Shown here one piece after another: positions 3,883-6,619 of a stretch of 64,000 bases of DNA (position 1 is its first letter; the number at the start of each line of letters is the position of its first letter). The position numbers and the translations under genes are program-made. A model generated the notes under the pieces. That model worked only from the letters and a program-made list of their open reading frames with translations, had not been told where the DNA came from and did not search any database. The DNA comes from a bacterium (GTDB taxonomy: Bacteria > Patescibacteriota > Minisyncoccia > Phycocordibacterales > UBA2100). The stretch lies in assembly GCA_021781955.1 (NCBI GenBank), contig JAJXVV010000001.1, positions 26,688-90,687 of the forward strand, read 5' to 3'.

Positions 3883-3892
3883 GCAGAAACAC

Positions 3893-3917
3893 AAAACCCG
3901 CCTTGCGGCGGGTTTTG
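3893..3917 (-). terminator. rho-independent terminator (duplicate of the tuf terminator)
   Basis: Minus-strand CAAAACCCGCCGCAAGGCGGGTTTTG: GC-rich stem followed by a U-tract. Confidence 0.6.
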
Positions 3918-3940
3918 CTGCGATGCTTCGTTGGGAAGGG

Positions 3941-4147
3941 CTACGCGACGATCTTCGTCACGACGCCGGCGCCGACGGTCTTGCCACCCTCGCGGATGGC
4001 GAAACGCATCTGCTCTTCCATGGCGATCGGGCCCTGCAACTTGACCTTGAAGGTCACGGTGTCGCCCGGCATCACCATCTCCACGCCCTCCTTGAGGGTC
4101 ACCTCGCCGGTGACATCGGTGGTGCGGATGTAGAACTGCGGCTTGTA
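3941..4147 (-). pseudogene. tuf': truncated EF-Tu C-terminal fragment (tuf 3' remnant)
   Basis: Encodes the same C-terminal 68 aa as full-length EF-Tu (...[42 protein letters not shown]). Similarity stops abruptly at 4148, so no N-terminal part is present. Confidence 0.85.
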
Positions 4148-4200
4148 AGCACTAATGATTCCATGCTACAAAGAAGTCTGAGTAGGCAAAGGAGGTACGG

Positions 4201-4776
4201 ATGCGTAAGCATGCTCTTTTCCATGGTCGTTTTCAACCACCGTCAATCGCACACTTCGAAACACTTGGAACGATCCTGCAGAAGTGGGAACTGGTCACCA
4301 TCGGTGTTGTGTATGCAATTCCAAAACCAGCATGGCTGGACCCAAAATGGAACTCGTACGTAGAAGAAGTTCTGCAAACATACACCCCTGCTAGAAATCC
4401 GTTTTCCGCTCATGAACGAGTGCGCATGTGGAACGAATGCATCCGCCATTCCAACCTGACGGAACGCGTTCAATGCGTAGCGGCGCCAATTCCTTACTTT
4501 GACGAAAGCTTCAGTGAAGAATTCCCGCCTGAGGAATACGATTTCGTCAAACCAGAAGCTGAGAAACACGAGACCTTGGATTTATTGCGCGAACAAACCA
4601 CAGCGCAGATTCTAAATCGTTCGCTTTTTACGGTCCGACCGCAATGGAAGTTGCACGTGACCGAAATGCGCAATCTTGTGTCGCAAGGAGCACAGTGGCA
4701 CAAGTTCCTTGCGCCCGGAATCGGCGATGTGTTCTCGGAACTCAATGGCAACGAAAGGATGAGGGACCCTATATGA
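4201..4776 (+). CDS. cytidylyltransferase-like nucleotidyltransferase, archaeal NadM/NMNAT-like with divergent HxGH motif
   Basis: N-terminal FHGRFQPPSIAH resembles the GRFQPFHxGH signature of NadM-type NMN adenylyltransferases, though the HxGH is degenerate (SIAH). C-terminal TEMRNLV resembles the ISxTxxR motif. The gene sits in a visibly lower-GC region. Confidence 0.5.
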   Translation: MRKHALFHGRFQPPSIAHFETLGTILQKWELVTIGVVYAIPKPAWLDPKWNSYVEEVLQTYTPARNPFSAHERVRMWNECIRHSNLTERVQCVAAPIPYFDESFSEEFPPEEYDFVKPEAEKHETLDLLREQTTAQILNRSLFTVRPQWKLHVTEMRNLVSQGAQWHKFLAPGIGDVFSELNGNERMRDPI

Positions 4777-5215
4777 GGGTCCTTCTTTTTAGATCGGACA
4801 ATATGTCACGATCGCGCAAATTCTTAGGTAAATGCGAAAGAGAAAAATACCGAACTTCAGACACCTCTTTTTCGTCTGCTTTTAATTCTCCGGAAAGAGG
4901 CTTACATATAAATGGCAGACCAACAATCCACACCTCGTCCCCATTATCGTACGTATCTTTCATCGTATACACGCCAAGTAACTCATGCACCTTAACGATC
5001 AACCCGGTCTCTTCGAATACCTCTCGCTCGGCTGCTTGTTGCGGCGTCTCGTATAATTCGAGATACCCTGCGGGCAATGCCCATTGACCTTTCTTCTCGA
5101 TACGATGTATGAGCAACACTTCCTTCCTTTCGTTAAAAATAATTCCTGCCGCTGCGGTCAGAATCAAGGGCGCAGTGCCCACCTTGCTTCGTATCCACTG
5201 AATGTAATTATCCAT
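4769..5215 (-). CDS. NUDIX hydrolase
   Basis: Nudix box GYLELYETPQQAAEREVFEETGL matches GX5EX7REUXEEXGU. Convergent with, and overlapping, the nucleotidyltransferase gene. Confidence 0.8.
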   Translation of the reverse strand: MDNYIQWIRSKVGTAPLILTAAAGIIFNERKEVLLIHRIEKKGQWALPAGYLELYETPQQAAEREVFEETGLIVKVHELLGVYTMKDTYDNGDEVWIVGLPFICKPLSGELKADEKEVSEVRYFSLSHLPKNLRDRDILSDLKRRTLI

Positions 5216-5371
5216 AATATGCCGCTGTGAGAAGGATTGTCGCTATGTGTGTATTCATTTGAATCCCGCGACATTGTCTGCCTGCGAACAGACGCGGCCG
5301 ACACGCTTTGGTGGTCATGCGCGAATGTGTACACGTAAGGTACACGATGTCAACAAGTAGCATCGTAACAC

Positions 5372-5396
5372 AAAACCCGCCTTGCGGCGGGTTTTG
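5372..5396 (-). terminator. rho-independent terminator of tuf
   Basis: Hairpin CCCGCCGCAAGGCGGG plus U-tract on the minus strand immediately after the tuf stop. Confidence 0.65.
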
Positions 5397-5419
5397 CTGC
5401 GATGCTTCGTTGGGAAGGG

Positions 5420-6619
5420 CTACGCGACGATCTTCGTCACGACGCCGGCGCCGACGGTCTTGCCACCCTCGCGGATGGCGAAACGCATCTGCTCTTCCAT
5501 GGCGATCGGGCCCTGCAACTTGACCTTGAAGGTCACGGTGTCGCCCGGCATCACCATCTCCACGCCCTCCTTGAGGGTCACCTCGCCGGTGACATCGGTG
5601 GTGCGGATGTAGAACTGCGGCTTGTAGCCGGAGAAGAACGGCGTGTGACGGCCTCCTTCCTCTTTGGTGAGGATGTACACCTCGGACTCGAATTCCGTGT
5701 GCGGGGTCACCGTACCCGGCTTCGCGAGCACCTGACCGCGATGCACGTCGTCCTTTTTCGTACCGCGCAAGAGCACGCCCGCGTTGTCGCCGGCCTGTCC
5801 CTGCTGGAGCGATTTGTTGAACATCTCGACGCCAGTGACGGTCGTCTTGGCGGTGTCCTTGATGCCGATGATCTCGACTTCCTCTCCCACCTTCACGATG
5901 CCTCGGTCGATACGGCCGGTGACCACGGTGCCGCGGCCTTCGATCGAAAAGACGTCTTCGATGGCCATGAGGAACGGCTTGTCGAGGTCGCGCTGCGGTT
6001 CGGGAATGTACTCATCGAGCGCTTTCACGAGCTCCATGACCTTGTCGCTCCACTCGTTGCCCGGGGCCGGGTTCTCAAGCGCCTTGAGACCGGAGCCGCG
6101 GATGACCGGTGCCTGCTTGCCGTCGAAGCCCTGCTTGTCGAGCAATTCGCGCACCTCCTCTTCGACGAGGTCGACGAGGTCCTTGTCCTCGACCATGTCC
6201 ACCTTGTTGAGGAAGACGACGATCTTCGGTACTCCCACCTGCTTCGCAAGGAGGATGTGCTCACGTGTCTGCGGCATGACGCCGTCGGTCGCTGCGACCA
6301 CGAGGATCGCGCCGTCCATTTGGGCGGCGCCCGTGATCATGTTCTTGATGTAATCGGCGTGGCCAGGCGCGTCTACGTGCGCATAGTGACGCTTCGGGGT
6401 CTCGTACTCGGAGTGCGAGAGCGAGATGGTAATACCGCGCGCCTTCTCTTCCGGCGCCTTGTCGATGTCGTCGACGCCCTTCACGGACGCGCCGTAGCCG
6501 TTGCCGGCCTTCGAAAGGACGTTCAAGATCGCAGCCGTGAGCGTCGTCTTGCCATGGTCGACGTGACCGATGGTTCCGACGTTCACGTGCGGCTTCGAAC
6601 GATTGAATTCTTCTGCCAT
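5420..6619 (-). CDS. tuf: elongation factor Tu
   Basis: 399 aa. [31 protein letters not shown]... G-domain motifs present and conserved full length. Confidence 0.97.

Follow-up and report, generated by a model that had tools for sequence, protein, structure and literature searches.

How can a bacterium with a reduced genome take up foreign DNA inside an essential, conserved translation gene and still keep that gene whole? This question is raised by the 3' end of tuf, the gene for elongation factor Tu (EF-Tu), in a 64-kb stretch of contig JAJXVV010000001.1 (contig positions 26,688 to 90,687). We call this stretch the window, and coordinates refer to it unless another locus is named. A repeat search of the window, together with direct reading, showed that 260 nt occur twice in direct orientation with 100% identity, at 3888-4147 and 5367-5626, the copies being offset by 1,479 nt from start to start; a chance match of 260 nt within 64 kb is negligible. 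Read from left to right, each copy holds the 53 nt that lie 3' of the tuf stop, including a hairpin, then the stop, and then the last 68 codons of tuf. A full tuf gene is reached from the right copy only. This copy (minus strand) provides the terminator and the last 68 codons of an intact tuf (5420-6619, minus strand), whose 399-aa product contains the GTP_EFTU, D2 and D3 domains. In the left copy, also on the minus strand, the 3' end of tuf is an orphan: its 68 codons and stop (3941-4147) have no tuf body upstream, and the copy still adjoins the native downstream flank. A G+C-rich terminator hairpin with a T-run behind it is found at 5371-5396 in the right copy and at 3892-3917 in the left. 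An initial annotation, made from the sequence alone, had described this duplication, and the repeat proves to be exact.

Between the two copies lies an islet of 1,219 nt (4148-5366). Its G+C content (GC) is 0.481, compared with a window mean of 0.601 (z = -3.3), which ranks it second-lowest among the window's 1.2-kb stretches. At third codon positions (GC3), its two genes stand at 0.52 and 0.49, while core genes range from 0.76 to 0.86 and neighbouring lineage-specific genes from 0.68 to 0.69. The islet is compositionally foreign and horizontally acquired, and it is absent from relatives: genomes whose EF-Tu is 95-96% identical carry a single tuf, no tuf fragment and no cassette. The earlier claims that the islet is low in GC, and that it entered the 3' end of tuf by horizontal transfer with a duplication that kept the gene intact, are thus borne out.

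The islet has only two open reading frames (ORFs), which are convergent and overlapping, as first annotated; the overlap is 8 nt. One (4201-4776, plus strand) encodes a 191-aa adenylyltransferase, hereafter NT, with the NMNAT/PPAT nucleotidyltransferase fold and the motifs GRFQPPSIAH, NPFSAHER and VTEMR. The other (4769-5215, minus strand) encodes a 148-aa Nudix hydrolase with the canonical Nudix box GYLELYETPQQAAEREVFEETGL. Neither ORF is a recombinase by domain-library scans, in keeping with the initial statement that the islet holds no integrase. Direct reading of the left inner junction and NT leader (4148-4200, plus strand) shows a strong ribosome-binding site, a GGAGG at 4191-4195, 5 nt before the ATG, and direct reading of the Nudix upstream region and right inner junction (5216-5366, minus strand) shows a perfect TTGACA on the minus strand at 5353-5348. 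A terminator-like hairpin followed by a T-run (4761-4785) spans the overlapping convergent stop codons. Near both ends of the islet there is a 7-nt inverted match, ATGCTAC/GTAGCAT, which we judged compatible with chance.

We then asked where the duplicated tuf end comes from. Had it been supplied by a foreign attP or a diverged gene end, the repeat should differ from the tuf genes of relatives in another degree than the rest of the gene does. Compared with the tuf of locus L012, nucleotide identity is 0.889 in the repeat and 0.888 outside it; compared with that of L013, the values are 0.821 and 0.830. The repeat has a GC3 of 0.94, and the terminator hairpin is common to the window tuf and its closest relative, L012. 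Because divergence is equal inside and outside the repeat and the hairpin is shared, the duplicated DNA is native Kaiserbacteria sequence, and we rejected a foreign source for the repeat. The assignment of the host follows from EF-Tu, which is 96% identical to that encoded in CP066682, a complete genome of Candidatus Kaiserbacteria with 859 kb; almost all of the best EF-Tu matches that carry a name come from Kaiserbacteria or other Parcubacteria. By this comparison the host is a reduced-genome bacterium of the Candidate Phyla Radiation (CPR), belonging to Kaiserbacteria, and the reduced genome assumed at the outset is thereby upheld.

An exact repeat of this length could also be produced by assembly. 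If we denote the left flank as LF, the repeat as R, the islet as I and the tuf body as T, the true genome would then read LF-R-T, and the R-I unit would be a separate small circle, a tandem array or a wrongly threaded strain variant. It is consistent with this possibility that every contig assembled with k=141 or k=31 breaks within the repeat, and that the assembly graph also permits LF-R-T plus a 1,479-bp loop. The breaks themselves fall where a true repeat predicts: the k=141 contigs stop 141 nt into the repeat, the k=31 contigs 30 nt into it, and a 1,501-bp contig consists of the islet with 141 nt of repeat on either side. Contigs from more than 10 public samples are 100% identical to the window in their overlaps; the locus is carried, for example, by SRR13162838, SRR13178630, ERZ27233572 and ERZ27236866. 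Each of the two islet junctions, tuf'|islet and islet|terminator, is a real sequence that recurs in more than 5 samples, and a single 11-kb contig leads from the left flank across the left copy of the repeat and all of the islet to a point 108 nt inside the right copy. In protein-cluster records, long deposited NCBI contigs hold the cassette genes (176.6 kb) and tuf (177.4 kb). A look-up of contigs by the exact tuf product returned no match, although NCBI has the protein cluster. The empty LF-R-T site was found in 0 of 27 contigs with the flanking genes. Finally, a circle of about 1.5 kb without a replication gene is implausible, and the diverged repeats that surround the same cassette in other genomes (see below) cannot arise by misassembly. 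Misassembly is unlikely on these grounds, and we consider a true LF-R-T genome with a detached R-I unit very improbable indeed.

Is this arrangement confined to the window? Scans of species-representative genomes and metagenomes found NT in Moraniibacteriota, Parcubacteria, Saccharibacteria and unclassified CPR metagenome-assembled genomes. The convergent pair, with the Nudix gene directly after NT on the opposite strand, was seen in L014-L017, L020-L022, L024 and L028 (L028 is the L022 site from another sample, and a further locus, L023, is a duplicate of the L015 contig). From these gene calls, NT and Nudix constitute a two-gene module that is conserved across Patescibacteria. Direct repeats of local DNA bracket the cassette in four further loci, three of them distinct (L014, L015 and L022/L028). 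Intergenic DNA is duplicated in L014 (118 nt, 95% identity) and in L015 (142 nt, 91.5% identity). In L022/L028 it is the 5' end of a PGA_cap gene (282 nt, 74% identity including a 48-nt in-frame indel); on the left, a PGA_cap copy truncated to 107 aa keeps its place in the operon, the full gene is found to the right, and in L022 the first codons of the restored gene are new and come from the cargo side. The bracketed copies have a common layout, namely a repeat, NT forward, Nudix reverse (then p335, also reverse) and a second repeat, with the intact gene running on from the right copy as it does in the window. The 274 kb of window and loci contain 6 pairs of direct repeats that are 100 nt or longer and separated by a gap of 0.3-6 kb, and 4 of these pairs bracket an NT-Nudix module. 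No bracketing repeats surround the module in L016, L017, L024 or L025; L017 has tRNA-Ala paralogues only.

The bracketing repeats of the four copies are mutually unrelated, and the junction sequences are not conserved. This is plainest for L014 and L015: their cargos are 86% identical, while their repeats align no better than shuffled sequences, the spacers between repeat and cargo fail to align, and the flanks on the right are not the same. When L022 is compared with these two, coding sequences alone can be aligned, and the spacers of the three loci differ in length and sequence. No integrase adjoins any related cassette copy that we examined. The module has a GC of about 0.41-0.43 in hosts with a GC of 0.39-0.50.

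We favour a recent, recombinase-independent insertion-duplication, anchored in tuf of a Candidatus Kaiserbacteria chromosome after DNA uptake, as the origin of the islet, and we would put the chances that this account is right at about even. Incoming DNA, taken up via the competence machinery, would have carried the cassette beside a tuf end. Its long homology to the resident tuf would have allowed the two to pair, and one of the joins, at 4147|4148, would have been illegitimate. Either Campbell-type insertion of a circularised fragment by a single crossover or homology-facilitated illegitimate recombination would yield the order LF-R-I-R-T, with no need of a second chromosome. In both cases the foreign cassette would be joined into tuf 68 codons ahead of the stop, the second native 260-nt end would keep the gene whole, and the original tuf end would remain as an orphan fragment beside its old downstream flank. 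Selection would retain only outcomes that restore tuf, which would be an ideal anchor given its strong conservation. A donor with the cassette just beyond the gene would explain why the repeat boundary lies at the end of the transcription unit. Two sets of features seen here are those expected of insertion-duplication: a segment of the resident host is duplicated, one copy being cut short while the other runs on into the intact gene (in the window and likewise in L022), and the junctions are arbitrary around an element that lacks conserved termini (L014, L015 and L022). Since L014 and L015 share no att core or defined transposon ends, no recombinase is found at any copy and the repeats are resident DNA, insertion-duplication by the cell's own recombination is the simplest explanation. 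As context for transformation, a gene for a ComEC-type DNA-uptake channel (PF03772) lies at 18893-20413 on the minus strand, as listed among the genes of L036, a locus that corresponds to window 19584-5486. The identity of the repeats also implies that loss of the cassette by recombination between them should be possible.

The initial annotation had taken the repeats for attL and attR. On that explanation an attP with a 260-nt replacement tuf end was integrated by a tyrosine or serine recombinase, and the integrase was later lost, leaving a remnant resembling a cis-mobilisable element (CIME), or acts in trans. Direct repeats do flank foreign cargo, the repeat extends from inside the gene to the exact end of the terminator and restores function, as is typical of elements that target gene ends, and the new first codons of the L022 gene resemble the work of elements that integrate at 5' ends. 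No integrase domain was found in the islet or in the flanks of any related copy, however, and four bracketed copies with four unrelated repeats, among them the L014 and L015 cargos with no repeat or junction sequence in common, are difficult to reconcile with a site-specific enzyme. Moreover, the repeat is indistinguishable from native tuf, and at 260 nt it far exceeds usual att cores, which are much shorter. Site-specific integration is unlikely in our view, and the attL/attR interpretation is probably wrong. Another explanation is duplication during repair or replication: foreign DNA would be caught at a staggered double-strand break, or template switching would occur in break-induced replication inside tuf, and fill-in of long overhangs would produce the 260-nt duplication. 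The variable repeat lengths (118-282 nt), the arbitrary junctions, the native repeat and the lack of a recombinase all agree with this, but it leaves unexplained why the repeat boundary coincides with the end of a transcription unit in the window or the start of a gene in L022, and why the same cassette is hit repeatedly. We regard such an origin as decidedly unlikely.

Several points weigh against insertion-duplication after DNA uptake. No donor with the cassette beside tuf was found in the collections searched, in which the nearest NT is 42% and the nearest Nudix protein 47% identical. The repeat boundary falls exactly at the end of the terminator, as would also be expected of an integrative element with a replacement gene end, and an integrase may act in trans from elsewhere in the genome, the search having covered the 64-kb window. 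No short-read k-mer crosses the 260-nt repeat, so that the order LF-R-I-R-T rests on the deposited long contigs and on the one 11-kb contig, which spans LF-R-I. The exact identity of the repeats fits recency or gene conversion and is neutral as to mechanism. A more far-reaching idea, which we hold to be doubtful, is that NT-Nudix(-p335) is an unrecognised mobile cassette of Patescibacteria, either recombinase-less or with a novel recombinase. It would spread between episymbionts and land in genes, duplicating 0.1-0.3 kb of target each time, through host competence and RecA or with p335 as a new long-duplication enzyme, and would supply a lacking step of cofactor salvage, such as that from nicotinamide riboside or nicotinamide mononucleotide (NMN) to NAD.

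The related loci differ in what accompanies the pair. A third gene, p335 (333-335 aa), stands behind Nudix in L014, L015 and L022/L028; L016 has a GHMP kinase at the position of this third gene, and in L017 a histidine phosphatase adjoins. Other neighbours of cassette copies are accessory genes (AbiEii, ParE, Bro-N, RhuM/Fic). The p335 gene is located upstream of the Nudix gene (L014 9188-10192, L015 9186-10190 on the minus strand, L022 7220-8218), and its copies are 77-89% identical. Its product has no match in Pfam, NCBIfam, PHROGs, PADLOC, PDB sequences, plasmids or phages; by eye only, it carries GIDAKTNNF...YVDQ, which resembles the D-x-K-x-x-N...D of a kinase catalytic loop. In L016, NT and the GHMP-kinase/Nudix operon are each preceded by a copy of one promoter-like element, about 50 nt long (TTGCAT, 17 nt, TAGAGT), the two copies being inverted (4326-4393 and 6645-6712); this suggests, from sequence, that the convergent units are co-regulated. 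Relative to L022, L028 is missing 116 nt within the NT gene (L022 6143-6260) and about 107 nt at L022 9126-9234, and NT is likely inactivated in the L028 population, judging from the first of these gaps. L015 contains an extra 2.1-kb insertion relative to L014 just upstream of the cassette (4923-7069), with an AbiEii-type toxin gene and two more Nudix genes. A search of the literature on integration into tuf, or on an NT-Nudix pair in CPR bacteria, returned nothing relevant.

What might the two proteins do? NT matches CTP_transf_like and, below cut-offs, models of archaeal NMNAT (45.4 bits where the subfamily model NF002243 demands 127; 37.1 bits where the equivalog model TIGR01527 demands 181). 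A word-indexed search of 5.8 billion proteins for NT homologues returned the query itself only, and a full HMMER scan of 1.84 billion representatives returned 98 relatives, the best at 42% identity. In an alignment of these relatives, the family members are about 190 aa long and share the motif GRFQPP(T/S)I(A/G)H; G9, R10 and H18 never vary, conservation extends to NPF..ER and to ..EIR.. at the C-terminal end, and T..R is kept. SIAH stands at the HxGH position in NT; family-wide the motif is (T/S)x(A/G)H, with the last His alone invariant, and VTEMR is present. The initial annotation had called this HxGH degenerate. As far as the alignment allows us to judge, it is a family-wide variant and not a decayed motif. 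When compared with structures, the family profile matches archaeal NMNAT best (1f9a, E 7e-19; 1ej2, E 1e-17), with PPAT at about 1e-7. An AlphaFold model of NT (pLDDT 95.5) has its best structural matches in PPAT and archaeal NMNAT, with TM-scores of 0.60-0.66. NT is accordingly predicted to be an adenylyltransferase of the NMNAT/PPAT group, which agrees in outline with its first description as NadM-like; a point against a narrower NMNAT assignment is that the fold search gives PPAT-like folds equally good scores.

Members of the NT family are also found fused to other domains (P0159, P0168, P0176, P0198, P0200, P0174 and P0226): to Nudix in P0174, which substantiates the expectation that fused relatives of the pair exist, and among the others behind Zeta-toxin-type P-loop kinases and once with TIR and NB-ARC. 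On a Streptomyces plasmid (L039), a zeta-NT fusion adjoins a Nudix gene and an inositol monophosphatase gene. The Nudix protein of the window scores 86.8 bits against Pfam NUDIX (gathering threshold 21.1; E 1.6e-24), and the box GX5EX7REUXEEXGU can be read in its translation. Two other Nudix homologues, P0007 and P0012, were rejected as cassette relatives, as they lie in unrelated Firmicutes-type contexts without an adenylyltransferase.

The steady pairing of NT with Nudix and a kinase points to a small metabolic module. In such a module a kinase, be it a fused one of the Zeta type, a GHMP kinase or possibly p335, would phosphorylate a precursor; NT would adenylylate the phosphorylated precursor, our best guess being NMN to NAD; and Nudix would hydrolyse the corresponding dinucleotide or ADP-ribose and so control the product, contributing to cofactor salvage or homeostasis in a genome-reduced symbiont. 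A role of the cassette in NAD or ADP-ribose metabolism is plausible as a prediction from the domain families. The initial annotation had also raised a role in counter-defence and had proposed a search for phage or plasmid homologues of the islet proteins. Profile scans found no member of the NT family in viral contigs or phage records, a plasmid relative is the Streptomyces zeta-NT fusion, and PADLOC gave a generic Nudix match only; nothing that we found supports counter-defence.

The surroundings of the islet and the rest of the window hold further features. In Kaiserbacteria, the classical fusA-tuf-rpsJ cluster is broken up on both sides of tuf (window 6908-9584; L012, L013). The insertions beside tuf include large Gly-rich secreted proteins with internal repeats, of 744 aa in the window, with a 604-aa paralogue encoded at 44758-46572. 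The native spacer between the left neighbour gene (3158-3715, minus strand) and the left repeat contains a perfect 21-nt inverted repeat (3813-3871), mentioned for context only, each arm of which includes the 17-nt palindrome CAGAGGACSGTCCTCTG. This palindrome occurs three times in the window (3816-3832, 3852-3868 and 52571-52587) against an expectation of 0.17, and it is the first two copies that make up the inverted repeat to the left of the orphan tuf fragment. The sequence CTGTGGATAR, with the DnaA-box-like TGTGGATAA, likewise occurs three times (0.15 expected), always in intergenic DNA: downstream of tuf' (3840-3849), upstream of tuf (6894-6903) and in a low-GC islet (42009-42018).

Elsewhere, a second direct repeat, of about 127 nt with 85-86% identity (43337-43463 and 44557-44682), has its start in the final bases of tRNA-Gly(gcc) (43269-43340). 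Between its copies lie about 1.1 kb with a 249-aa ORF of native composition (43477-44226), whose C-terminal helix-turn-helix is weakly like those of terminase small subunits or transposases; the segment may represent a further insertion of this genome that is flanked by a duplication. The window's lowest-GC stretch (40673-41877; 0.45) adjoins tRNA-Pro (40392-40462), encodes a TrmB-family regulator and a UPF0102/YraN-like nuclease (GC3 0.61 and 0.50), and is probably another acquired islet.

CPR bacteria, or Patescibacteria, have tiny genomes with few recognisable mobile elements and depend heavily on their hosts for metabolism, and how they gain accessory functions is poorly understood. The locus described here is a clean natural case of gene gain within an essential conserved gene, made harmless through duplication of the gene end, and the same cofactor-related cassette shows the duplication pattern at unrelated sites. 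Taken singly the locus is a modest finding; its interest comes from a conserved CPR cassette that is repeatedly found between long, unrelated host duplications with no recombinase in sight. If transformation and homology-anchored recombination are indeed responsible, core genes such as tuf would be landing pads for accessory DNA. This view fits the hypervariable flanks of tuf in Kaiserbacteria, where the intervals fusA-tuf and tuf-rpsJ are occupied by different lineage-specific genes in each genome. The NT family, with about 100 cluster representatives, its (T/S)x(A/G)H motif and its pairing with Nudix and kinases, is a tractable candidate for a missing step in the salvage of NAD or another cofactor.

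The enzymes of the islet resemble several known systems. NT is like the archaeal-type NMN adenylyltransferase NadM (1f9a, 1ej2), its best sequence-profile match, in GRFQP, NPFT..ER, the C-terminal ..EIR.. and the fold. It differs in that its family has Ser or Thr for the first His of HxGH and an insertion of about 20 residues after strand 2; it also scores well under the NCBIfam cut-offs, and PPAT structures fit the fold equally. PPAT itself has a TxGH motif, a variant comparable to that of the NT family. The pairing of the same two domain families is known from the bifunctional NadM-Nudix NMNAT/ADP-ribose pyrophosphatase (2qjo, 2qjt), to which the fused P0174 is a counterpart, and both window proteins match the PRK05379 models weakly, well below equivalog cut-offs. 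In the window, by contrast, the two are separate convergent genes with an 8-nt overlap, and fusion is seen in the distant member P0174 only. Phage NAD-reconstitution genes, in which NadV plus NMNAT/Nudix enzymes counter NAD-depleting defence, similarly place NMNAT-like and Nudix enzymes on mobile DNA, whereas the islet has no NadV, its NT has no phage homologues, no phage genes are nearby and the host DNA is a CPR chromosome.

As a genetic structure, the islet recalls the CIMEs at the 3' end of fda in Streptococcus thermophilus, integrase-less, att-flanked remnants whose repeats are short att cores shared with the integrase of a cognate integrative and conjugative element. Like them, it is a small cargo without recombination genes of its own between direct repeats of a housekeeping-gene 3' end. 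Unlike theirs, its repeat is native gene sequence of 260 nt, and neither the window nor the related loci yielded a cognate element, an integrase or a conserved core. Campbell-type insertion-duplication and homology-facilitated illegitimate recombination, which are known mainly from laboratory experiments with naturally transformable Acinetobacter and Streptococcus pneumoniae, share with the account that we favour a homologous anchor, a host duplication of about 100-300 nt, a single illegitimate junction and independence from a dedicated recombinase. In contrast to those laboratory events, the one whose mechanism we infer here is natural and fixed, it is situated in a translation gene that is essential to its CPR host, and further copies of the cassette are found elsewhere with other duplications.

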